Assembly: GCF_024700885.2 (NCBI RefSeq)
Contig: NZ_CP117016.1
Strand: one strand, 5' to 3'
Origin: Escherichia coli
Lineage (GTDB): Bacteria; Pseudomonadota; Gammaproteobacteria; Enterobacterales; Enterobacteriaceae
Length of the DNA: 64,000 nt
Shown piece after piece: positions 1-49,888 of this stretch; positions within the stretch are counted from its first letter, which is position 1, and the number at the start of each line of letters is the position of its first letter. The position numbers and the translations under genes were made by a program. The notes beneath the pieces were generated by a model. That model was not told the DNA's origin. It did no database searches and was given only the letters and a program-made list of their open reading frames with translations.

Positions 1-215
1 AGTCAAATTTGTCCAACTTCCCTTGATTAAAAACAACGAGTTTTTTTATAGAAAAGAAAAACTTTCTCGCATAAGCTGAACTAAAATTCACAGCAGTATA
101 GGCAAGGGTCTCTTTTATAGATGCTAATAAGATAGCATTAATGTTTCTTTCAAAATATGAGAAATTTAATTTAACATCTTTGCTGAGAAACCAAACACTA
201 TCATGTAAACTAAAA

Positions 216-1547
216 TTATTTCTGCTGTCTTTTGCCTTTAATACCAAGTAATTTTCTAACATTAATGCTTTCATCTATTTCTCCTTCAATTTTATTTATG
301 ATTTCTTGATTCACTAAATCTGCCTCTTCAAAAGCTTTTAAAGTTTCTTCACTAATATAACGATTGTTATAAATCAAAGCCGTTTTGGAGTTCATTTTCC
401 ACCCCATTCTTACGCATCTGATTCTATCTAATTGGGTCAATCTATATTGATCAGTGACTCCTATGTATTTTAAACTGTAAATATAGTTCCATGTGTGCCG
501 TAGACAATGCCCTGTGAAATTTTGAAAAGATACTCCATTGAATTCAATTCTACTTATTTGCTTAATTACTTTATGATATGCACTTATTGACAGAGGAAAT
601 CCTTCCGTAGGACCAGATTTTTGAGTAATAAATAAGTAATTATGATTTAAGCTTTTCGAATAGAAAGACCTATCATTGTCTATATATGAAGAGATTTGCA
701 TAGACAATTTTTTGCTAATATTTAATTCTCGTTCAAATGTTTTAACAAGTGGTTGAAAAACTCTTGGGTCTGCTGGATCATTTATTCTTTTACAAACTTT
801 CAGATATCTTTTTTCCTTGTTAAAATCAGTAATTTTCAAGTTCAATAGCTCACCCCCTCGCATTCCAGTTTCCTGAAGAATGAGGATTATGAGTTGATTT
901 CTTTTACGGCAACTGATATCAACAAATGGATTGTATTGGCTTTCAGGTTCTATACATTGCAATAGAATGTCTAAGCTTTCTTTTTCTAATGATTTAAAAT
1001 CATTATTCAAATAGAATTGAGAGTTTAATTTTGGTTTATGTTTACGAAAAAGCAAACTAACACTTTTTGATATAATGTTTGTCTCATATATTGTAGTGCT
1101 AAAATATGATTCATAAATCCAAGAAATGTAGGAACTAATTACTGTCAATCTATAATGAAGATTTTCTTGATTGATCTTTTTATACTCTTTTATATCTATA
1201 ACTTTTTGTTTTTTATTTTTAACTCTAAGTTGTTCTGACAATGAATAGATTTCAGTAAAGCTAAGGAAGGTCTTAGATCTAATTCTTTCGATAAGATTTA
1301 TATTTGATTCTATTAGATAATTTTCAAAAGCAATCAAAGTGTAAGCATTTCTCAATACTGTATTAAATGACTTATTCTTTTGCTTATATAGCAAACTAAG
1401 ATATATATTTTGATAATACAATGGCAAACCGTTTTTTGAATCCAAAATCATACAAAATCTGCTTCCATCACTCGCCATTAACTTCTTTACTGAATATCTC
1501 CTATTCATTATCACCCCATAATTTATTTTTTTATTTATAGGTAACAT
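216..1547 (-). mobile_element. Tyrosine site-specific recombinase (phage integrase family), AT-rich foreign gene
   Basis: 443 aa ORF; recombinase motifs seen in translation: ETGMRGGELLNL (box I Arg), GHCLRHTWNY (H-x-x-R), LIYNNRY (candidate catalytic Tyr). Strongly AT-rich codon usage unlike flanking core genes. ATG at 1545-1547. Confidence 0.6.
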
Positions 1548-1626
1548 AATTTTTTAGCAAGTTACAAATTTATTTGCTATTATTTTCAATGACCTTATTA
1601 CTCGCGACTCTAATAAAGAATCGGCC

Positions 1627-1652
1627 ATATATTCACCTTAAGGTGAATATAT
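1627..1652. promoter_or_regulatory. Perfect 26-bp palindrome ATATATTCACCTTAAGGTGAATATAT just upstream of the tRNA cluster; candidate operator or recombinase site
   Basis: Read directly: 11-bp inverted arms around a TTAA centre, followed by TTGACG at 1661-1666. Function unverified. Confidence 0.3.
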
Positions 1653-1680
1653 ATTCCCTCTTGACGCTCCAAAAAACAAT

Positions 1681-1757
1681 GCGGTAGTAGTTCAGTTGGT
1701 CAGAATATTCCCCTGTCACGGGAATGGTCGTGGGTTCGAGTCCCATCTATCGCGCCA
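1681..1757 (+). tRNA. tRNA-Asp (anticodon GUC), island-borne
   Basis: Manual cloverleaf fold: acceptor GCGGTAG/CTATCGC, D arm GTTC/GAAT, anticodon stem TTCCC/GGGAA with loop CTGTCAC, T arm GTGGG-TTCGAGT-CCCAT, discriminator G, encoded CCA. Confidence 0.7.
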
Positions 1758-1761
1758 GAAA

Positions 1762-1836
1762 GGGCAATTAACTCATTGGTAGAGTGTATCTCTTACAAAG
1801 ATATGGCGGTTGGTTCGATTCCAACATTGCCCACCA
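1762..1836 (+). tRNA. tRNA-Val (anticodon UAC), island-borne
   Basis: Manual fold: acceptor GGGCAAT/ATTGCCC, D arm ACTC/GAGT, anticodon stem TATCT/AGATA with loop CTTACAA, T arm GTTGG-TTCGATT-CCAAC, encoded CCA. Differs from the chromosomal E. coli tRNA-Val sequence as recalled. Confidence 0.7.
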
Positions 1837-1847
1837 AAACATAAAAT

Positions 1848-1918
1848 GCGTCAGTATTTCAATGGTAGAATAAAACATTGCCAATGTTTAGGTGAGGGTT
1901 CGATCCCCCTATATTTAC
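1848..1918 (+). tRNA. tRNA-like element with Gly (GCC) anticodon arm; 3-prime acceptor strand not complementary, so possible pseudo-tRNA or recombination remnant
   Basis: D arm TTTC/GAAT, anticodon stem AAACA/TGTTT with loop TTGCCAA, T loop TTCGATC present. 5-prime acceptor GCGTCAG has no complementary 3-prime strand (ATATTTA) and no CCA. Confidence 0.3.
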
Positions 1919-2104
1919 TTTAGTTAGTAACTCATTGATATAAAATAAATAATAGAAAAGTGTAATTTGTTTTGTAAAGCACAAATAAGAAATTAGAAAA
2001 TATTTAAATGTACAGTGTACGAAAAATTAACCAACTATGTTAATGGCAACTATATGATGATAAAATTACTCATCTAACGATCTATATTATATGAGTAATG
2101 TTTC

Positions 2105-2680
2105 ATGGTACGAAAAATCTCTACATTTTTAAAGATAATAGGAGTTATAGGTTCTTTATGCGGGATTATTGCGACAGTATTCACAATCTATGCGTACTAC
2201 AACCCGACCTCCCCTTCTACTCAGAGATATGACAGTATTGTAGGAAGCTGGCTATCTGATTACTCTTACACCGTAAAAGGGAATACCGTTAGGGTTAATG
2301 GAAAAACGACCTTCTTCTCTAATGGAAAATACAACTTTCATGGCAGTATCTCTATTGACTCTAATGCTCCAGGTGACCATATATTAATAGATTATCTTTC
2401 TGATGGTGCTGGTGATTGGGAACTATATGATAATGAGTTAATTACATCATTAAATAGCCTAAAAACAAAACCTATGAAGCTGGCTTTAAATAACGAAGAT
2501 CTTGATCCACTGAAAATAGAGGTGATAAACAATAAAAAGTTACCAACTATTGAGGAGAATATGGCTGATGGGAAAAACCAATCCTATAAAATAATAAAAT
2601 CTTCAAAAAGCCAGTTAACATTGGAGGTTATTAACGAAATCGGAAGCAATTTCAACTTTACTATGCAAAAAACAAAATAG
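2105..2680 (+). CDS. Hypothetical membrane-anchored protein (single N-terminal TM helix), island cargo
   Basis: 191 aa ORF; hydrophobic N-terminus FLKIIGVIGSLCGIIATVFTIYAYY; AT-rich; convergent with the helicase gene and sharing a terminator with it. Confidence 0.45.
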   Translation: MVRKISTFLKIIGVIGSLCGIIATVFTIYAYYNPTSPSTQRYDSIVGSWLSDYSYTVKGNTVRVNGKTTFFSNGKYNFHGSISIDSNAPGDHILIDYLSDGAGDWELYDNELITSLNSLKTKPMKLALNNEDLDPLKIEVINNKKLPTIEENMADGKNQSYKIIKSSKSQLTLEVINEIGSNFNFTMQKTK

Positions 2681-2682
2681 AA

Positions 2683-2714
2683 ATGATGGCGATCTGAAAT
2701 CGCCATCATTTTTC
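2683..2714. terminator. Bidirectional rho-independent terminator between convergent genes
   Basis: Hairpin TGATGGCGAT-cugaa-ATCGCCATCA followed by TTTTT. Confidence 0.5.
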
Positions 2715-4560
2715 AACCTTGATAATCTTCAGCCTCGATACCACAATAAGTTATCATGTTTGTTATTAACGGTATATCATTACAATTCTGCTTGAAAGAC
2801 CTGCCATAACTATTGTTTCTTATTTTACAACGAGTCATTAATACTTCTTCAATGGCTCTTGAAAATGCCACAAAGACTGTTTTTTGATTTTCTATTTGCT
2901 CTTCTTCTTTACCAAAATAGGCACCAGGTTCAAGCCCCACAACGATGACCTTCCTGAACTCTAACCCTTTACTTTTATGGATGGTCATAAGAGGTATTGT
3001 TTTATTGCCAAGTAATAAATCAATGGCTTCTGATGTGTTTTCTTTTACATCTAACTTATCGAGGTGGCGAGAAAGTAATTCTATGCTATATTCTAAAACA
3101 TTCCCACTCATATACTGCGGAAAGTAAGACTTTATTTTATCGACACCAAATATACTTAATAATGAATATAAATAATCGACAATTTCTCCTTTAATTACCC
3201 GATGAGATTTAATAAACTGGCTAAGTTCTTTTTCTAACCGTGTAACATCACCTCTTTTACTTACTCCTCTTATATTACATAGAAGCTCCATTGTAGTGGC
3301 CCAGCTTTCTATGGATTTTCTATTACAGACAAACATTAGCATTTGTAAAAGTAACTGTACTACAGCTTCATTTAAAAGATCCTGATACTCGTTCTCAAGG
3401 CGACATTGTATTTTCAAATATTGCAATGCTGAAATGATATCGTCTGTATATTGTTTAGCCGGGTTTCTTAGCAGTATACATATATCTCTTTCATTTACTC
3501 CTTCAGCAATCCATTGCTGGATACATAATGCTATATATGCCCCTTCAATACTACTTTCGTCAAATTGTAGTAACTTAGCTGAACCTTCATTTTCAATCAA
3601 CATCATATCAGGCTTTATATCAGCATGATTCATGAAAGCTTCCATCATGCGTTGATAATTTATGAGGTTTTTTAATGACCTTCTATTGCTAACTAATTCA
3701 TTAGATTGTTCGATTCCAAAATCTTTTTTAAACACATCAAAAGCATTGTGCATTGCACCTGCCCAACCCATTATTCTTTGTTTTGTATCACCGACTGCTG
3801 TTATTTTTATTTTTTTACCCAAGAAAATGCTCTTAAAAATCTCATATTGCCTATATGTTGTGTCCTGAAACTCATCGATAAAAGCATAGTCATATGTTGA
3901 ATTTATAGCATTAGATAAATATTGATTCCTACTAATAATATAATTAGCAAGAAAATTAATCATCTTGAATGAAATCCTTGATTTTGGTTTTAATAAGTGT
4001 AACCACACAAACCGTCTTATCCTGCCATCAACAGAATGTTCTAATGCTTTATTATAAGGAGTTACTATATAATTCTCTTCAAAATTATAAGGTTGTAATT
4101 TATTTAATTCTTCAGATGTTAAACCTTCAAAGCCTACGGCCTCTCTTTTAATTTCTTCAACTAAATCATTATTATTTGGAAAGATTATTTCATAGTCATT
4201 TGATGGACGATAAGATTCCGGAATAGTGCTTTTAAAGCGATCAACAATACTTTTACAGAATGCATCAAATGTTGTTGATTCAAATTTGTGTCTATATTTT
4301 GTATCAAGCCGTGAGTTTACTCTATCTTGAAGATTTTTGGCCGCATCTTTTTTAAAGGATAATGCAATTATTTTTTTATTGCTGCATTTTCCTGTCTCAA
4401 TCAAGAAACAAGCTTTCTGAGCCAATAATTCTGTTTTACCTGCACCGGGACCAGCAAGAACGAGATTATGCCCTGTACTATTTCGAATTACCCTCATAGC
4501 CTCGTCTTCTACTTCTTGGATATCCTTTAAAACCCAATCGGCATCTTTAATAGTCGGCAT
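2713..4560 (-). CDS. UvrD/PcrA-like superfamily 1 helicase (GajB-like)
   Basis: 615 aa; SF1 helicase motifs in translation: LAGPGAGKTELL (I), IDEFQDTT (II), GDTKQRIMGW (III), VSNRRS (IV), TIHKSKGLEF (V), VAFSRA (VI). ATG overlaps the upstream stop by 1 nt (TAATG). Confidence 0.8.
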   Translation of the reverse strand: MPTIKDADWVLKDIQEVEDEAMRVIRNSTGHNLVLAGPGAGKTELLAQKACFLIETGKCSNKKIIALSFKKDAAKNLQDRVNSRLDTKYRHKFESTTFDAFCKSIVDRFKSTIPESYRPSNDYEIIFPNNNDLVEEIKREAVGFEGLTSEELNKLQPYNFEENYIVTPYNKALEHSVDGRIRRFVWLHLLKPKSRISFKMINFLANYIISRNQYLSNAINSTYDYAFIDEFQDTTYRQYEIFKSIFLGKKIKITAVGDTKQRIMGWAGAMHNAFDVFKKDFGIEQSNELVSNRRSLKNLINYQRMMEAFMNHADIKPDMMLIENEGSAKLLQFDESSIEGAYIALCIQQWIAEGVNERDICILLRNPAKQYTDDIISALQYLKIQCRLENEYQDLLNEAVVQLLLQMLMFVCNRKSIESWATTMELLCNIRGVSKRGDVTRLEKELSQFIKSHRVIKGEIVDYLYSLLSIFGVDKIKSYFPQYMSGNVLEYSIELLSRHLDKLDVKENTSEAIDLLLGNKTIPLMTIHKSKGLEFRKVIVVGLEPGAYFGKEEEQIENQKTVFVAFSRAIEEVLMTRCKIRNNSYGRSFKQNCNDIPLITNMITYCGIEAEDYQG

Positions 4561-6548
4561 TAAAGTAATCCTCTTACTGTTTCGATAATTTCATTAAGAA
4601 CTTCAGGACTATCATCTCTTAACTTATCGTCTTCCATTTTTGATAGAACATAATTGTGCGATAATGGTTTACCTCTTCCTAAAAATAGGTAACGATACCA
4701 AAAATATTTTTCATAATCATCGAACTCACTAATATCAATATCTTTCTCTTCTTTTTTCAAAACTGCAGCAATTGCCGATTTAACTTTATTATCATATTCA
4801 TGATCGTCATCTTTTGGCAATCTTGGCCCACCATTTTTGGGAACAAATGTCTTATAATCCTCAAAGAATTTATTAAGCATTAGCCAATCTAAATCGTAGG
4901 GGTAAGAAAAATAAACATTATAATCTTTTAGACAATTAATCCATGCCGATTCATTATCTTGATCCTCATCCCATGTATGCATTTTTTCAAGCTCTTCATC
5001 ACTTAAAGTTCCTGAAGTAATACTTAACAATTCATTTTTATCTGCACCTATAGATATTAATTGTTTGACTGCATATTTAATTCTTCCCCAACCACCACCT
5101 CCTCCTCTCTTGAAATCATAGTCGAGAAGAGTCACATGTGGAATTGAAAGCTCATTGAGTAACTTCCAAAAATGATTAACATATCGCCCTCCTAATGGAG
5201 CAAATGTTATCAATGAAGTGTCAAGCTCTATACCATTTACTTGAGCTATTTTAGGTATTACTATTTCTTCGCTATCACCTTCACCAAGTATTACAACTTT
5301 TGCAAAATAAATTTCTGGATATGCCTTCACTGCTTCTTTTACATAAGTGAAAGTATCAACATTGTCTCCATCGTCTTCATCTTCGCTTGGTAATAATATT
5401 GGTTTGACAACAGTATTTTTATTATCATGTAGACGAAAATACCTTATATTTTCTGGTTCTACTCTATTGAGTAATGAAGGTGCGTGTGTTGTTAAAACAA
5501 CCTGTGCTCGATCATTCTCAGATATATCTTCACATAGTTTAACTATTCTTCCTAAATATTGGGGTGAAAGATGATTTTCTGGTTCTTCGATTAATATTAT
5601 CGTTAAATTTGGAGGATCTAATGCTTCTACTGATATTGATAATTCATTTTCTCCTGAATTAATGATCTCATCTTCAATATCAAATGCAGATTTGACTAAC
5701 GAAAGATAAAACAATGACTTCATACCATCACTCAATCTTTCAGTTGGTAATGGCTGAGTCACCGGAGTAGGCATAAATACAGTATCTATATGCTTTAATA
5801 CATCTTCTATTCCATTCATTACTGGCTGAATTTTAAGCTGTTCAAAATACCCTCCGCTAAAAAGAGTTTTCCAATTTCTGCCCAATGAAGATGTTATTGT
5901 CTGAACCCCAATTTCTTCTTGGAACTGGTTTCCGATTGATTCTGCAACCTCATCAACCGTTGAACTCATCTGTTCAGACCATTCAACTGCATTTATCAAA
6001 CGGTGCATGATGGTTCCGGCTGTTTGCTTCAGTTGTTGAGCAGGATCGCGATAAGCAGGGACATAATGAACATGGATTTTTGATCTTTCATATGCTGTAA
6101 TATTTTTTTCATATTCTCCTATTTCCCATACTAAATCACTATCTATATCCCCTTCTGCAAGATTAGTTTTTGTCCATTTAGCTTTTAATTTTGCTATACA
6201 GTATGGGATCTGGTCTGCTTCATTTGAGACCAAATGCTTAAAGAAATCAGCGACTGAATCGTCCTCACCATCTTGCAGATCTGCAAATTCAAATTTTACA
6301 CGAACTGATAATTCTCTTTCATCTTGAGTATCGATTTCATCTCCAGGAGGAACATAAAAATCATCAACTTGAACAATTCTATCGGAGCTTTTGACACCAA
6401 ACATCCTTGTCAATGCGAGGAGAACAGCCGTCTTACCTGTTCCATTCCCTCCAATTAAGCTGGTGAATGAATTTATATTTATAGTTTGCCCTACATTATC
6501 AAAGCTCTTAAAACCTTTGATCTCCATTTGTGTAATTTTCATTATCAC
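4560..6548 (-). CDS. OLD-family ABC-type ATPase with C-terminal TOPRIM nuclease domain (GajA-like)
   Basis: 662 aa ORF from a GTG; likelier ATG start at 6542 with GAGGTG Shine-Dalgarno. Walker A GGNGTGKT, ILIEEPENHLSP (Walker B/D-loop typical of OLD ATPases), VLTTHAP (H-loop), TOPRIM-like VVILGEGDSEEIV and LLDYDFKRGGGGGWG. Confidence 0.8.
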   Translation of the reverse strand: MIMKITQMEIKGFKSFDNVGQTININSFTSLIGGNGTGKTAVLLALTRMFGVKSSDRIVQVDDFYVPPGDEIDTQDERELSVRVKFEFADLQDGEDDSVADFFKHLVSNEADQIPYCIAKLKAKWTKTNLAEGDIDSDLVWEIGEYEKNITAYERSKIHVHYVPAYRDPAQQLKQTAGTIMHRLINAVEWSEQMSSTVDEVAESIGNQFQEEIGVQTITSSLGRNWKTLFSGGYFEQLKIQPVMNGIEDVLKHIDTVFMPTPVTQPLPTERLSDGMKSLFYLSLVKSAFDIEDEIINSGENELSISVEALDPPNLTIILIEEPENHLSPQYLGRIVKLCEDISENDRAQVVLTTHAPSLLNRVEPENIRYFRLHDNKNTVVKPILLPSEDEDDGDNVDTFTYVKEAVKAYPEIYFAKVVILGEGDSEEIVIPKIAQVNGIELDTSLITFAPLGGRYVNHFWKLLNELSIPHVTLLDYDFKRGGGGGWGRIKYAVKQLISIGADKNELLSITSGTLSDEELEKMHTWDEDQDNESAWINCLKDYNVYFSYPYDLDWLMLNKFFEDYKTFVPKNGGPRLPKDDDHEYDNKVKSAIAAVLKKEEKDIDISEFDDYEKYFWYRYLFLGRGKPLSHNYVLSKMEDDKLRDDSPEVLNEIIETVRGLL

Positions 6549-7195
6549 CTCAATTGCTGTTTTAAAAAATTATAATCACTAATTATTTCTGCGTTTGTAA
6601 TGATTTCTTGTGAGCACAGCTTAAAACATTCTAAAAATATATTTTTATTATCGTTATGTTCCCAATGTTTTTTCAAAGCTTCTTCAATTGAAATCCAAAT
6701 AACTTGAAAATCGTTATTAGATATTTGGCTTGTTAAAACTGTTTCTTCCACACAAAGTATATGCCCTAAGATGACATCATCGTATATGTCAGTATCTGAA
6801 TCTCTAACTCCTAACCTTTTTATTTTCCTTTTTTGGATGATTTTATTTTTAACAATAAAAGGATGTTCTTCTATAAAATCGGTCAATGATGTAAAAGCCA
6901 AGCCACGAACCTGAGCACCATGCATTGAACTATTTACTTTATGGATATCTCTCCAAACTCGCAGATCACCTAATACATAGAGAACCCGCTGATTTCTCGC
7001 TTTCGTATCTTCTGCTTGGTATTGGATATAAGGTGGCCCTCCCCCATTTTGTCTATATCGGGCAAGGGTTTTGATGCTTATGCCAAGAAAGACAGAAGCA
7101 AGCTCACTATTTACAGTGGCAGAATCAGGCATTTGACCAAATAGTTTCCATACCTCTGAATACTCCCGCAAAACTTCCACCACACTCATCTTCAC
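6545..7195 (-). CDS. HTH-domain protein (excisionase/MerR-like N-terminus plus uncharacterised ~130 aa C-terminal domain), first gene of the defense operon
   Basis: 216 aa ORF (GTG at 7195 or ATG at 7189). N-terminal ELASVFLGISIKTLARYRQNGGGPPYIQY resembles excisionase-type HTH. Starts within 2 nt of the integrase stop and ends 2 nt before the GajA-like start. Confidence 0.5.
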   Translation of the reverse strand: MKMSVVEVLREYSEVWKLFGQMPDSATVNSELASVFLGISIKTLARYRQNGGGPPYIQYQAEDTKARNQRVLYVLGDLRVWRDIHKVNSSMHGAQVRGLAFTSLTDFIEEHPFIVKNKIIQKRKIKRLGVRDSDTDIYDDVILGHILCVEETVLTSQISNNDFQVIWISIEEALKKHWEHNDNKNIFLECFKLCSQEIITNAEIISDYNFLKQQLR

Positions 7196-8655
7196 TCCCT
7201 CGTTTCAGGTAATGGAGGATACTTAGCCGAAGCAAGTAACACATTGTATAATTTAGGAGCAGTCATAAGCATATGCAACTCAATCCTTTGTAATGCTTCA
7301 AAAATCCGTTCTTGATCAGGTTCTGCATACCTTTCTGTTGGATCTGTTGTATTTCTGTGATTGAGCAGTCTCTTAACGACGGCATATGAAACAAGTTCTT
7401 CAGCAACCCTACCAAATGTCCTTCGTAGATCATGCATACCAAGCTTCAGGATTCCCGCCTCTTGGCAGATATATTCCCTTAGACTTTTACTATCGGAATA
7501 GTGACCAACTTTACTTCGAGAAGAACGGGCCGGGAAAACCCACTTCTGTTTGTCCTTCTGGGTTACCGTATCGTTTACTATGTCTCTTCTATCTTCCAAA
7601 ATTCTTTTGACAGCATCACAAATCGGAAGCTCGTGATCGTTTCGATTCTTAGTGTCGTAAAAACGGATAGTTCTGTTACTCAGGTCAACATAGCTTGTCG
7701 TTTTAGCTTCTTCCTTTGTAAGAGACTCTCGCCAACACAGAGAAGCTGTTTCTTCCTTACGAGCACCTAAGAGAACGGTAAGTAGCAGATAATCGCACCC
7801 AAGCCGGTTGAAGCTTCTCTTGTTGAACAATGCAGTCAAGAACCGACCAAGTGTATCCTTTGGTGATAAGGGGTTTCTGACACCTTTTGCCCGATAACTA
7901 TCCTCAAGCTCAGAACGTGTCCTAAACTTTTTCTGTACCTTTAAGATACTGAAAGGGTTGTAAGATAGAGAAGGTTGTCGTTGCTGGGTCTGAGCATTCC
8001 CAGCTTCAATCTCTATTGCGTGTTTTACAGCAACATTCGCCCACCTAAAGGTCTGTTCCGCTGCTGTTCTGGCTCTTGAAGCAATCTCATCAAACTTCCT
8101 AAGAATTTCATTACCAGTAAGATCTTTAACTCGCAAACCAGCCCACTCAGAAAGCCTGTTTTCTGCTTTATCTAATACAGCCAAGGTGTTGGGTTTAGCT
8201 GGTTTCGCTCTACCCAGCAGATGCTGGCGGTATTGTGCAAACACTTCACTGATAGTGAGTTCAGAAGCATCGGACTCCCGTTTTATTTTGTTAGGGTTCC
8301 TTTTGGTCAACTTCATGGTTTGAACTAAATTGCGAGCAACCTCGCGGGCTTGATCGATGTTAGCGAAATCAGAGACATTGCCAATTGTAGACCTGATAAC
8401 CTCAGATGGGGATTTTCCCCCTGTCTTAGGGCGATTGCCAGGAGAAGAGACTCGTCGCTGAACGATATAGGTCTTTTTCGTTGCACTGATTTTGACACCA
8501 AAACCAACGGGTGAATCCCGGTGATTATCAGTGATAAGATACGGTTTTCGCTCTGGATTGGGTAAGTAGACTACTCTGCCTTGCGGATCAAGGCTCGGTT
8601 TCACGTCGATAGATAACTTATTGATTATAATCGACTGATTGAGTGTCATTTTCAT
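7192..8655 (-). mobile_element. int: P4-type tyrosine integrase
   Basis: ORF track 7192..8763; trimmed to internal ATG (MKMTLNQ...) at 8653-8655. N-terminal arm-binding-like region (YLITDNHRDSPVGFGVKISATKKTYIVQRR), box I ARKEE, HDLRRTF, C-terminal ERY. Near-host GC, unlike the cargo. Confidence 0.8.
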
Positions 8656-8658
8656 CGA

Positions 8659-8717
8659 TGTATACCAGTGGTTCAAGTGTGTATACCAGATAGTAGCTAG
8701 AATACTTCTGGTATACA
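8659..8717. repeat. Three copies of TGTATACCAG (two direct, one inverted) at the integrase 5-prime end; candidate integrase-binding or att-associated sites
   Basis: Exact 10-mers at 8659-8668 and 8680-8689 (direct) and 8708-8717 (inverted), between the integrase start and mutS. Confidence 0.45.
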
Positions 8718-8787
8718 AATTTATGGGTTTATGTGAGTTTAAAGGGGTATCACTTGGGGCCACATAAGTACTCAGAAGACTTTAAAA

Positions 8788-11370
8788 ATGAGTAAAATCA
8801 ATATGAAAGAGTCTGCAAGCAAGGATCTATCAGACCACACTCCTATGATGCAGCAATATCTCAAGCTGAAAGCCCAGCATCCCGAGATCCTGCTGTTTTA
8901 CCGGATGGGTGATTTTTATGAACTGTTTTATGACGACGCAAAACGCGCGTCGCAACTGCTGGATATTTCACTGACCAAACGCGGTGCTTCGGCGGGAGAG
9001 CCGATCCCGATGGCGGGGATCCCCTACCATGCGGTGGAAAACTACCTCGCCAAACTGGTGAATCAGGGCGAGTCCGTTGCCATCTGCGAACAAATTGGCG
9101 ATCCGGCGACCAGCAAAGGTCCGGTTGAGCGCAAAGTTGTGCGTATCGTTACGCCAGGCACCATCAGCGATGAAGCCCTGTTGCAGGAGCGTCAGGACAA
9201 CCTGCTGGCGGCTATCTGGCAGGACAGCAAAGGTTTCGGCTACGCGACGCTGGATATCAGTTCCGGGCGTTTTCGCCTGAGCGAACCGGCTGACCGCGAA
9301 ACGATGGCGGCAGAGCTGCAACGCACTAATCCGGCAGAGCTGTTGTATGCAGAAAATTTCGCCGAGATGTCGCTGATTGAAGGTCGTCGCGGACTGCGCC
9401 GTCGCCCGCTATGGGAGTTTGAAATCGACACCGCGCGCCAGCAGTTGAATCTGCAATTTGGCACCCGCGATCTGGTCGGTTTTGGCGTCGAGAACGCGCC
9501 GCGCGGACTTTGTGCTGCCGGTTGTCTGTTGCAGTATGCGAAAGATACCCAACGTACGACTCTGCCGCATATTCGTTCCATCACCATGGAACGTGAGCAG
9601 GACAGCATCATTATGGATGCCGCGACGCGTCGTAATCTGGAAATCACCCAGAACCTGGCGGGTGGTGCGGAAAATACGCTGGCTTCTGTGCTCGACTGCA
9701 CCGTCACGCCGATGGGCAGCCGTATGCTGAAACGCTGGCTGCATATGCCAGTGCGCGATACCCGCGTCTTGCTTGAGCGCCAGCAAACTATTGGCGCATT
9801 GCAGGATTTCACCGCCGAGCTGCAGCCGGTACTGCGTCAGGTCGGCGACCTGGAACGTATTCTGGCGCGTCTGGCTTTACGAACTGCTCGCCCACGCGAT
9901 CTGGCCCGTATGCGTCACGCTTTCCAGCAACTGCCGGAGCTGCGTGCGCTATTAGAAAATGTCGATAGCGCTCCGGTACAGGCGCTGCGTGAAAAAATGG
10001 GCGAGTTTGCCGAGCTGCGCGATCTGCTGGAGCGAGCAATCATCGACACACCGCCAGTGCTGGTACGCGACGGTGGTGTTATCGCACCGGGCTATAACGA
10101 AGAGCTGGATGAGTGGCGCGCGCTGGCTGACGGCGCGACCGATTATCTGGAGCGTCTGGAAGTCCGCGAGCGTGAACGTACTGGCCTGGACACCCTGAAA
10201 GTCGGCTTTAACGCGGTTCATGGTTATTACATTCAGATCAGCCGTGGACAAAGCCATCTGGCACCCATCAATTACATGCGTCGCCAGACGCTGAAAAACG
10301 CCGAGCGCTACATTATTCCAGAGCTAAAAGAGTACGAAGACAAAGTTCTCACTTCAAAAGGCAAAGCACTGGCACTGGAAAAACAGCTTTATGAAGAGTT
10401 GTTCGACCTGCTGTTGCCGCATCTGGAAGCGTTGCAACAGAGCGCGAGCGCGCTGGCGGAACTCGACGTGCTGGTGAACCTGGCAGAACGGGCCTATACG
10501 CTGAACTACACCTGCCCGACCTTTATTGATAAACCGGGTATTCGCATCACCGAAGGCCGCCATCCGGTGGTTGAACAGGTGCTGAATGAGCCGTTTATCG
10601 CCAACCCGCTGAACCTGTCGCCGCAGCGTCGCATGTTGATCATTACCGGTCCGAATATGGGCGGTAAAAGTACCTATATGCGCCAGACCGCACTGATTGC
10701 GCTGATGGCCTACATCGGCAGCTATGTACCGGCACAAAAAGTCGAGATTGGACCTATCGATCGCATCTTTACCCGCGTAGGGGCAGCGGATGATCTGGCA
10801 TCCGGGCGTTCAACCTTTATGGTGGAAATGACCGAAACCGCCAATATTTTACATAACGCCACCGAGTACAGTCTGGTGCTGATGGATGAGATTGGGCGCG
10901 GGACGTCCACTTACGATGGTCTGTCGCTGGCGTGGGCGTGCGCGGAAAATCTGGCGAATAAGATTAAAGCGTTGACACTGTTTGCCACCCACTATTTCGA
11001 GCTGACCCAGTTACCGGAGAAAATGGAAGGCGTCGCCAACGTGCATCTCGATGCGCTGGAGCACGGCGACACCATTGCCTTTATGCACAGCGTGCAGGAT
11101 GGCGCGGCGAGCAAAAGCTACGGCCTGGCGGTTGCAGCTCTGGCAGGCGTGCCAAAAGAGGTTATTAAGCGCGCACGGCAAAAACTGCGTGAGCTGGAAA
11201 GCATTTCGCCGAACGCCGCCGCTACGCAAGTGGATGGTACGCAAATGTCTTTGCTGTCAGTGCCAGAAGAAACGTCGCCTGCGGTCGAGGCACTGGAAAA
11301 CCTCGACCCGGATTCACTGACTCCGCGTCAGGCGCTGGAGTGGATTTATCGCTTGAAGAGTCTGGTGTAA
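8788..11370 (+). CDS. mutS: DNA mismatch repair protein MutS, with a non-K-12 N-terminus
   Basis: 860 aa; near-identical to E. coli MutS from about residue 17 (HTPMMQQYL...). First ~16 residues ([16 protein letters not shown]) differ from the K-12 N-terminus (MSAIENFDA, from memory). Confidence 0.95.
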
Positions 11371-31184: not shown

Positions 31185-32222
31185 ATGTTTTCCGCATTGC
31201 GCCACCGTACCGCTGCCCTGGCGCTCGGCGTATGCTTTATTCTCCCCGTACACGCCTCGTCACCTAAACCTGGCGATTTTGCTAATACCCAGGCACGACA
31301 TATTGCTACTTTCTTTCCGGGACGCATGACCGGAACTCCTGCAGAAATGTTATCTGCCGATTATATTCGCCAACAGTTTCAGCAAATGGGTTATCGCAGT
31401 GATATTCGGACATTTAATAGTCGGTATATTTATACCGCCCGCGATAATCGCAAGAGCTGGCATAACGTGACGGGAAGTACGGTGATTGCCGCTCATGAAG
31501 GCAAAGCGCCGCAGCAGATCATCATTATGGCGCATCTGGATACTTACGCCCCGCTGAGCGATGCTGACGCCGATGCCAATCTCGGCGGGCTGACGTTACA
31601 AGGAATGGATGATAATGCCGCAGGTTTAGGTGTCATGCTGGAACTGGCAGAACGCCTGAAAAATACGCCTACCGAGTATGGTATTCGATTTGTGGCGACC
31701 AGTGGTGAAGAGGAAGGGAAATTAGGTGCTGAGAATTTACTCAAGCGGATGAGTGACACCGAAAAGAAAAATACGCTGCTGGTGATTAATCTCGATAACT
31801 TAATTGTTGGCGATAAATTGTATTTCAACAGTGGTGTAAAAACCCCTGAAGCAGTAAGGAAATTAACGCGCGACAGGGCACTGGCAATTGCGCGTAGTCA
31901 TGGAATTGCCGCAACGACCAATCCGGGTTTGAATAAAAATTATCCGAAGGGTACTGGCTGTTGTAATGACGCCGAAGTTTTCGACAAAGCCGGTATTGCC
32001 GTACTTTCGGTAGAAGCAACAAATTGGAATCTTGGGAATAAGGATGGTTATCAGCAACGCGCAAAAACAGCAGCATTCCCTGCGGGAAATAGCTGGCATG
32101 ACGTAAGACTGGATAATCAACAACATATTGATAAGGCACTTCCAGGAAGAATAGAACGTCGCTGCCGTGATGTTATGCGGATAATGCTACCGCTGGTGAA
32201 GGAGCTGGCGAAGGCGTCTTGA
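31185..32222 (+). CDS. iap: Alkaline phosphatase isozyme conversion aminopeptidase
   Basis: 345 aa with signal peptide; divergent from cysD as in K-12. Confidence 0.85.
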   Translation: MFSALRHRTAALALGVCFILPVHASSPKPGDFANTQARHIATFFPGRMTGTPAEMLSADYIRQQFQQMGYRSDIRTFNSRYIYTARDNRKSWHNVTGSTVIAAHEGKAPQQIIIMAHLDTYAPLSDADADANLGGLTLQGMDDNAAGLGVMLELAERLKNTPTEYGIRFVATSGEEEGKLGAENLLKRMSDTEKKNTLLVINLDNLIVGDKLYFNSGVKTPEAVRKLTRDRALAIARSHGIAATTNPGLNKNYPKGTGCCNDAEVFDKAGIAVLSVEATNWNLGNKDGYQQRAKTAAFPAGNSWHDVRLDNQQHIDKALPGRIERRCRDVMRIMLPLVKELAKAS

Positions 32223-32348
32223 TGGGTTTGAAATGATTACTCCCTTGCCTGCAGGAAATCAATGCCACCAGAAACAGAGTATAAAAAAGGGGTGCAGGAG
32301 GCCAAACTTTAACAATTCAATACGCGGGGTTTTACCCCCGCGTGGTGG

Positions 32349-32501
32349 CTACTTCTTCGATTCGTAAGCGAGAACTGCCTTAAACTCCATACCACGTTCT
32401 CTGATACTCAACTCACACAACGAGTCGCCTACCATCAGCGTGAATCCCAGTACTGTACAACACAGTACGATGATTGCCACAAGGGCATATTTTGTCAGCA
32501 T
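32349..32501 (-). CDS. Hok/Gef-family type I toxin (small membrane peptide), apparently intact
   Basis: 50 aa [53 protein letters not shown] with the SLCE...AYES signature of Hok/Gef toxins; GGAGG Shine-Dalgarno 6 nt upstream. Not in the ORF track (under 60 aa). Confidence 0.6.
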
Positions 32502-32765
32502 GTCTTGCCTCCCTGCAAAGAAGAGACTAACATTCGAATTGCTTAGGTTCGAACGCTGGCCTCAGGTTGATAGAAATATCGCCTGGGGCTTTTGTCCATC
32601 TGGAACCTCGCGAATGCTTAACGCCAGACAGCCTCAAGCACCCAACTCCATTCTATACCTGTTAATTCTCCCTGCGATGTTCACCTTTAAATGCCGGAAT
32701 GCTGCTCGCAAAATAAAAACGCCCCCATCATTTCTGACAGAGGCGTTTAATTTATCCGGCAATAT

Positions 32766-47080: not shown

Positions 47081-48559
47081 ATGTCGAAAAAATACATCAT
47101 AGGGATTGATGGCGGAAGTCAGAGCACAAAAGTGGTGATGTACGATCTGGAAGGTAACGTGGTTTGCGAAGGCAAAGGCTTATTACAGCCGATGCACACG
47201 CCAGATGCCGATACTGCAGAACATCCTGACGACGATTTATGGGCATCATTATGTTTTGCCGGTCACGATTTGATGAGTCAGTTTGCCGGAAATAAAGAAG
47301 ATATTGTCGGTATTGGTCTGGGATCCATCCGTTGCTGCCGTGCGTTATTGAAAGCCGATGGCACGCCAGCTGCGCCGTTGATTAGCTGGCAGGATGCTCG
47401 CGTTACACGCCCTTACGAACATACGAATCCTGACGTGGCATATGTCACCTCTTTTTCGGGTTATCTGACGCATCGCTTAACCGGCGAGTTTAAAGATAAT
47501 ATCGCCAACTATTTTGGTCAGTGGCCGGTGGATTATAAGAGCTGGGCATGGAGCGAAGAGGCTGCGGTAATGGATAAGTTTAATATCCCCCGTCATATGC
47601 TGTTTGATGTGCAAATGCCTGGCACCGTCCTCGGACATATCACACCACAAGCCGCGCTGGCGACACATTTCCCGGCTGGGCTGCCGGTTGTTTGTACCAC
47701 CAGTGATAAACCGGTAGAAGCACTGGGAGCCGGGTTACTGGATGATGAAACTACGGTAATTTCTCTTGGCACTTACATCGCGTTGATGATGAACGGCAAA
47801 GCACTGCCGAAAGATCCGGTAGCGTACTGGCCGATTATGTCTTCTATTCCGCAAACATTGCTGTATGAAGGTTACGGTATCCGCAAAGGCATGTGGACAG
47901 TGAGCTGGCTGCGCGACATGTTAGGCGAGTCGTTAATTCAGGATGCCAAAGCACAGGATCTTTCACCGGAAGATTTGCTCAACAAAAAAGCGTCTTGTGT
48001 GCCGCCTGGCTGTAATGGTCTGATGACGGTGCTGGACTGGCTGACCAATCCGTGGGAACCGTACAAACGCGGGATTATGATCGGCTTTGATTCCAGCATG
48101 GATTACGCATGGATATATCGTTCGATACTGGAAAGCGTGGCGCTGACGCTGAAGAACAATTACGACAATATGTGTAATGAAATGAATCACTTTGCAAAGC
48201 ATGTGATCATTACTGGCGGCGGTTCGAACAGCGATCTGTTTATGCAGATTTTTGCCGACGTGTTCAACCTTCCGGCACGCCGTAACGCCATTAATGGTTG
48301 TGCAAGTCTGGGGGCAGCGATTAATACGGCGGTAGGTCTGGGGCTATACCCGGATTACGCAACGGCTGTCGACAAAATGGTTCGCGTGAAAGATATCTTT
48401 ATGCCTGTTGAGAGCAACGCCAAACGCTACGACGCGATGAATAAAGGCATTTTCAAAGACCTAACCAAGCACACTGATGTGATCCTGAAAAAATCGTATG
48501 AAGTGATGCATGGTGAGCTGGGGAATGAAGATTCGATCCAGAGCTGGTCGAATGCGTAA
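47081..48559 (+). CDS. ygcE: FGGY-family carbohydrate kinase
   Basis: 492 aa; K-12 synteny. Confidence 0.8.
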   Translation: MSKKYIIGIDGGSQSTKVVMYDLEGNVVCEGKGLLQPMHTPDADTAEHPDDDLWASLCFAGHDLMSQFAGNKEDIVGIGLGSIRCCRALLKADGTPAAPLISWQDARVTRPYEHTNPDVAYVTSFSGYLTHRLTGEFKDNIANYFGQWPVDYKSWAWSEEAAVMDKFNIPRHMLFDVQMPGTVLGHITPQAALATHFPAGLPVVCTTSDKPVEALGAGLLDDETTVISLGTYIALMMNGKALPKDPVAYWPIMSSIPQTLLYEGYGIRKGMWTVSWLRDMLGESLIQDAKAQDLSPEDLLNKKASCVPPGCNGLMTVLDWLTNPWEPYKRGIMIGFDSSMDYAWIYRSILESVALTLKNNYDNMCNEMNHFAKHVIITGGGSNSDLFMQIFADVFNLPARRNAINGCASLGAAINTAVGLGLYPDYATAVDKMVRVKDIFMPVESNAKRYDAMNKGIFKDLTKHTDVILKKSYEVMHGELGNEDSIQSWSNA

Positions 48560-48605
48560 GTGAGGAAGGCCGGGCGGGAAACTGCCCGGCCTGAACATAC
48601 CTGAA

Positions 48606-48877
48606 TGGTTATCCCCGCTGACGCGGGGAACTCGCCAGTGCCTGGTCATATGTGTAACACCTATCCGGTTTATCCCCGCTCGCGCGGGGAACTCTTGCTG
48701 TATAGAGATTATCGGCGTGGGATTGTCGGTTTATCCCCGCTCGCGCGGGGAACTCGTTTGCGGCTTGCAAACATTTTAATGCGTATTCGGTTTATCCCCG
48801 CTCGCGCGGGGAACTCCCAGCCCGACACAAATAATGCAGCATTGCGCGCGGTTTATCCCCGCTCGCGCGGGGAACTC
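48606..48877 (-). CRISPR. Orphan type I-E-like CRISPR array: 4 intact 29-bp repeats plus 1 degenerate terminal repeat, four 32-bp spacers; AT-rich leader on the right (transcribed on minus strand)
   Basis: Repeats CGGTTTATCCCCGCTCGCGCGGGGAACTC at 48666-48694, 48727-48755, 48788-48816, 48849-48877; degenerate copy at 48606-48633. Spacers at 48634-48665, 48695-48726, 48756-48787, 48817-48848. Reverse complement matches the E. coli I-E repeat except one loop base. No cas genes in the window. Confidence 0.9.
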
Positions 48878-49216
48878 TCTAAACATAACCTATTATTAAT
48901 TAATGATTTTTTAAGCCAGTCACAATCTACCAACTTTACAGTATCACACAAACAACACATCTATTATGTTAAAGAGCACTTAATCCATTGATTGAAAAGG
49001 TAAATATTTAAAATAACTCTATACAAACTAAAATCTACCAAACTCCGACGTAATAATTTTCACCTCAGAGAAAAATTAACGCCACAGAATTTGTAGAGAA
49101 TGACAATGATTAGTCCGGAATGGGCAAAATGGATGAGTTTTCAGAGGCGACAAAAAATATAAATGAGTGGAAGTCTTTACAGGTTCCACCCATTTATAAC
49201 GCATATAAATGTGTAA

Positions 49217-49888
49217 TCAGGCAATATTTAAATATTTATGTGTTTGCATCGACAAACGCCAGTTACGCGCAATGCAAGTTTCAATGCACAAACGTGTGGC
49301 ATCATCCTTTTGGCTAATCGGCTGCAGTGCAATGACTCGCGGTTTATCATCGGTCAGCGTCGCAAGCAATTCATCCAGTGCTTCGATATCACGTACGCGT
49401 CCAACTGGGTGTTTGATTTCGTTAGCTCGCTCCAGGGCTTGCGACAATACTTCATAACCACCACGCATATTTAGCTTTGGCGACACGGTGACCCAGGTAT
49501 TCGACGTACAACGCACTTCATGAGTACCGCTGGTTTCTATCTGGCAACTGAAACCGTTCTTTTCGAGCAGATCAGTTAGTGGCATCAAGTCATGAATACA
49601 AGGTTCACCACCCGTAATCACCACGTGACGCGCGGTGTATCCCTGACGACCGATGACTGCGAGTAAGTCTTCACTGCTTGCTGCTCCCCACTTATCACTC
49701 TCTTTCGTTTTACCCAGAATGCTGAAAAGGGAAACTTCCCGATCCTCAAGCTTTTCCCATGTGTGTTTGGTGTCGCACCAGGCACAGCCGACCGGGCATC
49801 CCTGTAAACGAATAAAAATGGCGGGAACGCCGGTAAAGTAACCCTCACCTTGCAGGGTCTGGAACATCTCGTTAATCGGGTACTGCAT
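49217..49888 (-). CDS. queE: 7-carboxy-7-deazaguanine synthase (radical SAM)
   Basis: 223 aa, radical-SAM cysteine motif CPVGCAWCD. Confidence 0.9.
   Translation of the reverse strand: MQYPINEMFQTLQGEGYFTGVPAIFIRLQGCPVGCAWCDTKHTWEKLEDREVSLFSILGKTKESDKWGAASSEDLLAVIGRQGYTARHVVITGGEPCIHDLMPLTDLLEKNGFSCQIETSGTHEVRCTSNTWVTVSPKLNMRGGYEVLSQALERANEIKHPVGRVRDIEALDELLATLTDDKPRVIALQPISQKDDATRLCIETCIARNWRLSMQTHKYLNIA

Follow-up and report, generated by a model that had tools for sequence, protein, structure and literature searches.

The CRISPR array at positions 48605-48877 of the 64,000-nt stretch of Escherichia coli DNA analyzed here (hereafter, the window) is the chromosomal type I-E array CRISPR 2.3, also named CRISPR-II or CRISPR2 (PMC3903273; PMC10910852). 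At a probability of about 85%, we regard it as an orphan array whose spacers were directed against temperate phages, whose cas genes have been lost and whose content persists as a frozen, non-functional memory.

The array consists of five 29-nt type I-E repeats and four spacers, each of which is 32 nt long (Table 1). Four of the repeats are identical copies of CGGTTTATCCCCGCTCGCGCGGGGAACTC that start at 48666, 48727, 48788 and 48849 and thus recur with a start-to-start period of 61 nt; these four matches compare with none in 100 dinucleotide-preserving shuffles. The original prediction had reported four 32-nt spacers at this place; its sequences and coordinates were exact, and its reading of them as CRISPR spacers was right. 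The repeats belong to those of E. coli type I-E arrays, which have the 'type 2' sequence CGGTTTATCCCCGCTGGCGCGGGGAACTC or a close variant of it. Each of the four departs from the K-12-type repeat of UMNK88 at a single base, and this variant base falls in the tetraloop of the predicted hairpin (GCGA here vs. GCCA in the K-12-type repeat). The hairpin, with a 7-bp stem and a tetraloop, has a predicted energy of -15.1 kcal/mol, which is the same as that of the K-12-type repeat, and on this folding prediction the repeat RNA would present the stem-loop that Cas6e recognizes. Matches between the array and the phage reach 33 nt (query positions 61-93) and take in the PAM-derived base.

The location between ygcE and ygcF/queE, with an AT-rich leader toward queE, is that of CRISPR 2.3. 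Many complete E. coli chromosomes match positions 48000-49400 at 100% identity and have the region annotated as ygcE, CRISPR and queE. Over a larger scale, positions 8835-63999 are collinear with strain 1190 at 99.98-99.99% identity, while positions 1-8900 are 100% identical to strain MLI114. The left end of the window (within 1-8834) also contains a Gabija defense system on the minus strand (2713-6548), located in an integrase-rich island that adjoins mutS and has tRNA-Asp (1681-1757) and tRNA-Val (1762-1836); strain 1190 is without the island, whereas MLI114 and CFSAN061761 carry it at 100% identity.

The array emerged from find_repeats and a pattern search, but not from Tandem Repeats Finder, which is attributed to the 61-nt units being conserved over only about half of their length. 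No CRISPR family was found at the array by Rfam at gathering thresholds, which has no bearing on the identification. A 128-aa ATG open reading frame that runs across the array and leader on the plus strand (48605-48991) was rejected as a gene and is a mechanical product of the repeats. We also noticed that S3 holds a 7-bp inverted repeat, GTTTGCGGCTTGCAAAC (48756-48772), which looks terminator-like on the plus strand in our scan; it stems from the phage Gp157 gene and is probably incidental.

With the AT-rich leader at the right, queE end of the array (48878 onward) and the degenerate repeat at the left, ygcE end, the array would be transcribed from the minus strand. Consistent with this polarity, S1, the spacer common to related strains, sits at the ygcE end with the degenerate repeat, each AAG PAM found is 5' of the minus-strand spacer, and the leader starts with TCTAAA like the CRISPR 2.1 leader of UMNK88. 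The strings originally given were correct in sequence but written on the plus strand, and the functional spacers are thus their reverse complements. Judged by position in the array, spacer age increases from S4, the newest, to S1, the oldest. A simple promoter scan revealed no consensus sigma-70 promoter on the minus strand of the leader.

Table 1. Features of the CRISPR 2.3 array, its flanks and related loci; coordinates are those of the window unless another sequence is named.
Feature	Position	Strand	Remarks
GajB	2713-4560	-	E = 2.6e-198
GajA	4560-6548	-	E = 1.9e-240
iap-cysH gap, hok/sok only (sok 32486-32643)	32223-32765		empty site of CRISPR 2.1 and the type I-E cas genes
ygcE (FGGY carbohydrate kinase)	47081-48559	+	left flank defining the CRISPR-II locus
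Degenerate leader-distal terminal repeat, ATGGTTATCCCCGCTGACGCGGGGAACTC (plus-strand sequence)	48605-48633	-	hairpin still predicted to fold
Spacer S1 (oldest by position), crRNA sense GATAGGTGTTACACATATGACCAGGCACTGGC	48634-48665	-	best match lambdoid side-tail-fiber genes, 29/32
Type I-E repeat, crRNA sense GAGTTCCCCGCGCGAGCGGGGATAAACCG	48666-48694	-	
Spacer S2, crRNA sense ACAATCCCACGCCGATAATCTCTATACAGCAA	48695-48726	-	terL of STEC384/STEC379 ttcA prophage, 32/32, AAG PAM
Type I-E repeat	48727-48755	-	
Spacer S3, crRNA sense AATACGCATTAAAATGTTTGCAAGCCGCAAAC	48756-48787	-	Gp157-family gene, 31/32, AAG; IMG/VR, 32/32, AAG
Type I-E repeat	48788-48816	-	
Spacer S4 (newest by position), crRNA sense CGCGCAATGCTGCATTATTTGTGTCGGGCTGG	48817-48848	-	phrog_1072 gene of IMG/VR prophage, 31/32, AAG
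Leader-proximal type I-E repeat	48849-48877	-	
AT-rich leader 2.3, 31% GC	48878-49216	-	starts TCTAAA; PMC3903273, PMC3737337
queE (ygcF)	49217-49888	-	right flank defining the CRISPR-II locus
S2 in CRISPR 2.1 arrays of other lineages	UMNK88 (L012) 2501-2532; L034, L035 and L036, 1501-1533		

The four spacers were concatenated and searched against plasmids, GenBank phages and 5426 complete E. coli genomes, and IMG/VR was scanned too. The targets, originally described as unknown, can now be named for S2, S3 and S4, each of which has a protospacer in a prophage gene that is exact or matches at 31/32, with the canonical AAG PAM, at most one mismatch and none in the seed. Besides AAG, ATG serves less often as a type I-E PAM. 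For S1, the match is diverged, and its closest known alleles have AAA at the PAM position. In the plasmid collection there was no credible spacer target; a 26/29 match in a Pasteurella glycosyltransferase gene has E = 2 and was judged to be due to chance. Exact scans of IMG/VR found nothing for S4 or S1, nor for S2 preceded by AAG. The array itself was present in 31 of the 5426 complete E. coli genomes, 30 of which carry all four spacers, while 19KM1831 carries only S4-S3-S1.

S2 and S3 match the same prophage of STEC384 and STEC379. The S2 protospacer lies in terL, where the plus-strand match is followed by CTT, which corresponds to the AAG PAM, and the S3 protospacer lies 20.8 kb away in a Sipho_Gp157-family gene, with its single mismatch at PAM-distal position 32. 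An AAG-anchored scan of IMG/VR recovered the exact version of the latter in a contig with 91% identity to the early region of the STEC384 prophage across 4.1 kb. The prophage is present in 2 of the 5426 complete E. coli genomes and occupies ttcA, the Rac attachment site (NZ_CP091029.1, about 2638000-2681900). Its early region is lambdoid, with Gam, exonuclease VIII, the Gp157-family gene, replication protein P and NinG, and its late region encodes a baseplate-type contractile tail. It has no close relative in GenBank, where no phage TerL is more than about 70% identical to its own. A match of S2 to the terL of Klebsiella Drexlerviridae (22/24, E = 7) is too weak alone but consistent with the exact terL protospacer. 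Genes for a type I restriction endonuclease and a DNA methyltransferase are part of the prophage as well. Acquisition of S3 primed by S2 was considered and found unsupported, as the two protospacers are on opposite strands of the prophage and type I-E priming favors the same strand.

S4 matches a single IMG/VR contig, which was found with one of three wobble-degenerate patterns; the other two phases gave nothing in IMG/VR. The one mismatch falls on the wobble base of an Ala codon (GCT/GCC), at position 11, and is synonymous. The target is a 182-aa phrog_1072 open reading frame located downstream of head-decoration and neck genes, i.e., in a neck/tail module, and in its E. coli homologues the gene under the same match is that of baseplate assembly protein V. 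Only such homologues, with about 65% identity, were found in the E. coli genomes.

The assignment of S1 is weaker than those of S2-S4. Among GenBank phages, the sole notable match falls in phiSTEC1575-Stx2k, in a gene for a tail protein (E = 0.01), and in the E. coli genome collection the match has E = 0.1. At the PAM position, AAA (Lys) was found in 17 of 17 IMG/VR alleles as well as in the Stx2k phage; no AAG allele of the site was found in genome, metagenome or viral collections, and PAM-anchored exact and codon-degenerate scans of the genome and metagenome collections returned nothing. These values, a match of only 29/32 and a non-canonical PAM in all 18 alleles despite four large scans for an AAG allele, would also be expected if the tail-fiber match were coincidental and S1 came from an unsampled element unrelated to lambdoid phages. 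We consider such a coincidence unlikely, because the match extends over the whole spacer in frame with the tail-fiber gene and all three differences are synonymous, so that both sequences encode DRCYTYDQALA; the probability that three random changes would all be synonymous in this frame is about 0.0065. In E. coli, the repeat base adjoining a spacer derives from the PAM and is inserted together with the spacer (PMC3737337). Given that the base adjoining S1 is G in crRNA sense, the source of S1 would have had G at position -1, which speaks for an unsampled source allele with AAG; relative to AAA, this would add a fourth synonymous difference (Lys). Thus, S1 is probably, if not provably, derived from a lambdoid side-tail-fiber gene.

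The original prediction had overlooked that the cognate cas operon is missing. No cas genes were found in the 64-kb window, and the canonical site of CRISPR 2.1 and the type I-E cas genes, between iap (31185-32222) and cysH about 540 bp away, is empty. The gap contains sok (Rfam, 111.7 bits) and no repeat remnant, and homology of the window to the cas-positive UMNK88 stops about 10 nt past the iap stop codon. The same iap-hok/sok-cysH junction, with 1 SNP in 580 nt, is found in PCN033, which shares only S1 with the window, and the canonical cas site is also empty in strain 1190 and in GmM066, whose iap-hok-cysH site is without cas genes. Published CRISPR-I arrangements include ones that lack cas-E and contain hok/sok, and leader 2.3 is a conserved feature of the strains concerned (PMC3903273).

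Whole chromosomes were examined by blastn with a single query, in which a repeat-free yqcE-ygcE anchor was joined to the cas1e gene of UMNK88 (E1-type); at this genome-wide scale, cas1e is the only probe from which the absence of cas genes is read. In 30 of the 31 array-bearing genomes, including MLI114, the query matched a single place, the anchor, and cas1e-like DNA was therefore absent, while two places (the anchor and one more) are the species median and were also seen in the next-closest ygcE lineage. Accordingly, no complete type I-E system (cas3, cse1, cse2, cas7, cas5, cas6e, cas1 and cas2) was found, with cas1e as the genome-wide probe. GmM066 (NZ_CM183652.1) is the sole array-bearing genome, of the 31, with a second match in this test, which may reflect either a duplication of part of the anchor or cas1e-like DNA at another place. 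With the cas operon absent, any match between spacer and target would be without consequence in the strain of the window.

The array in the window's strain is thus most likely an inert relic, as in the absence of Cas6e, Cascade and Cas3 its transcript would be neither processed nor used and would not confer immunity. We infer both this present-day inactivity and the order of events, with acquisition before cas loss. In the proposed history, an ancestor with cas genes would have captured the four spacers from temperate phages by means of its type I-E Cas1-Cas2 integrase and the usual selection of AAG: one prophage, which integrates at ttcA and has a contractile tail, would have supplied both S2 and S3, while S4 would stem from another prophage, which has a baseplate gene, and S1 from a lambdoid side-tail-fiber gene. 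CRISPR 2.1 and the whole cas-E operon would later have been lost, leaving iap-hok/sok-cysH, and the orphan array would since have changed solely by losing repeat-spacer units.

Comparison with sister arrays bears on this history. In 19KM1831 (L007, 2972-3182), S2 has been cleanly deleted from the array. In the arrays of PCN033 (L006, 3972-4122), 19KM1776 and 7CC, the leader-proximal position is taken by another spacer, ATCCAGCACGCCGATCGCCAGGTCGTGGTTTT, with S1 next in line; a point mutation (GGGAAAC) affects one of the PCN033 repeats. The PCN033 spacer had no match among the spacer-source loci compared. The differences between the arrays of the window and PCN033 could have arisen by loss of repeat-spacer units, as in 19KM1831. 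That PCN033 combines the same cas-less junction with a different leader-proximal spacer nevertheless counts against a firm relative timing of cas loss and spacer gain.

It could instead be proposed that the array still works and its spacers block lysogeny, with Cas proteins encoded by a cas-E operon, either at a non-canonical site or on a mobile element, or regained from time to time by recombination. Leader and repeats are indeed intact, with an unchanged hairpin energy, three of the four spacers have matches proficient for interference (AAG, at most one mismatch and none in the seed), CRISPR-I is known to exchange cas-E modules (PMC3903273) and GmM066 has the second match described above. 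Moreover, the S2, S3 and S4 protospacers are found in none of the array-bearing genomes, as if the phages were excluded; given the rarity of the S2/S3 prophage, however, its absence from 31 array genomes says little. Such activity is very unlikely in view of the lack of chromosomal cas1e-like DNA in 30 of the 31 genomes, and the empty canonical site in the window, strain 1190, GmM066 and PCN033. We therefore retain the reading of the array as a frozen relic.

The original prediction had also raised the case of a chromosomal match, which would indicate self-targeting; this was searched for and not found in the window or in the array-bearing genomes covered. In the 64-kb window, no site is within 8 mismatches of any spacer, and the longest shared k-mers are 10-12 nt. 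For S2, S3 and S4, every array-bearing E. coli genome listed has one matching place, which is the array copy, and among the 13 array-bearing genomes listed for S1, none has a second place. In neither the window nor the array-bearing genomes covered is there a non-array match in the same genome, which would define a self-targeting array, and STEC384, which has the protospacers of both S2 and S3, is without S2 in any array. An action of any of the spacers on the chromosome of the host, by self-targeting or gene regulation, is thus highly improbable, even though about 10% of the E. coli genomes with CRISPR loci have some self-targeting event (PMC10910852) and S1-like sequences (29/32) are found in prophage tail-fiber genes of about 40 E. 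coli genomes, as these S1-like sites are mismatched at position 4, in the seed, their PAM is AAA and, by the cas1e test, the Cas effector is absent.

The array is the counterpart of E. coli K-12 CRISPR-II (2.2-2.3), with which it shares the locus, the ygcE and ygcF/queE flanks, the queE-side leader, the 29-nt repeat hairpin, spacers of 32 nt, or 33 nt if the co-inserted base is counted, and the AAG PAM (PMC3903273; PMC3737337). Compared to that array, the repeat in the window has one changed tetraloop base, and there are only four spacers. K-12 retains CRISPR 2.1 and a complete cas-E operon, which is H-NS-silenced and about 20 kb from CRISPR-II, whereas both are deleted in the lineage of the window. 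The cas-E-less CRISPR-I arrangements with hok/sok reported by Almendros et al. (2014; PMC3903273) have the same iap-hok/sok-cysH order and retain CRISPR 2.3 and its leader, and the window does not differ in substance from these arrangements, which are lettered A-I. In the type I-E repertoire studied by Dion et al. (2024; PMC10910852), the targets are likewise temperate phages and prophages, not virulent phages or plasmids, and there, too, spacers and their targets were not found in one genome. While that study sequenced CRISPR1 (2.1) arrays, the array in the window is the CRISPR2 (2.3) of a cas-less lineage. Spacers against prophages, the locus itself and the occurrence of orphan arrays in E. 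coli without cas genes are already known (PMC3903273; PMC10910852), and the array, which is annotated as 'CRISPR' in RefSeq genomes, is at the textbook CRISPR-II locus.

S2 is not restricted to the array described here. It is found in arrays of about 61 genomes outside the lineage of the window's array, and in UMNK88, EC-107, D72 and 2013C-4991 it occupies the leader-proximal position, that of the newest spacer, in the cas-adjacent CRISPR 2.1. It is flanked by K-12-type repeats in those CRISPR 2.1 arrays, while in CRISPR 2.3 of the window it is an internal spacer between variant repeats. Its occurrence in two arrays and in different lineages suggests either that one protospacer was captured independently or that the spacer was exchanged between arrays. 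S2 ends in AA, and a spacer-end AA is reportedly, from work by Yosef et al. in 2013, an acquisition-enhancing motif. Independent acquisitions, which would make the S2 site in terL of the rare ttcA prophage a natural 'hot' protospacer, are a tentative interpretation that we consider less likely than not.

The assignments of spacers to protospacers are a minor addition to what is known of this locus and provide a small record of the temperate phages met by the lineage, and self-targeting can be set aside. The presence of S2 in CRISPR 2.1 and CRISPR 2.3 of different lineages provides a natural example of either repeated protospacer capture or array exchange. If the S2 protospacer is indeed hot, the ttcA phage group would have repeatedly challenged unrelated E. 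coli, and cas-less lineages would hold intact, interference-grade memories that may be reactivated by exchange of cas modules.
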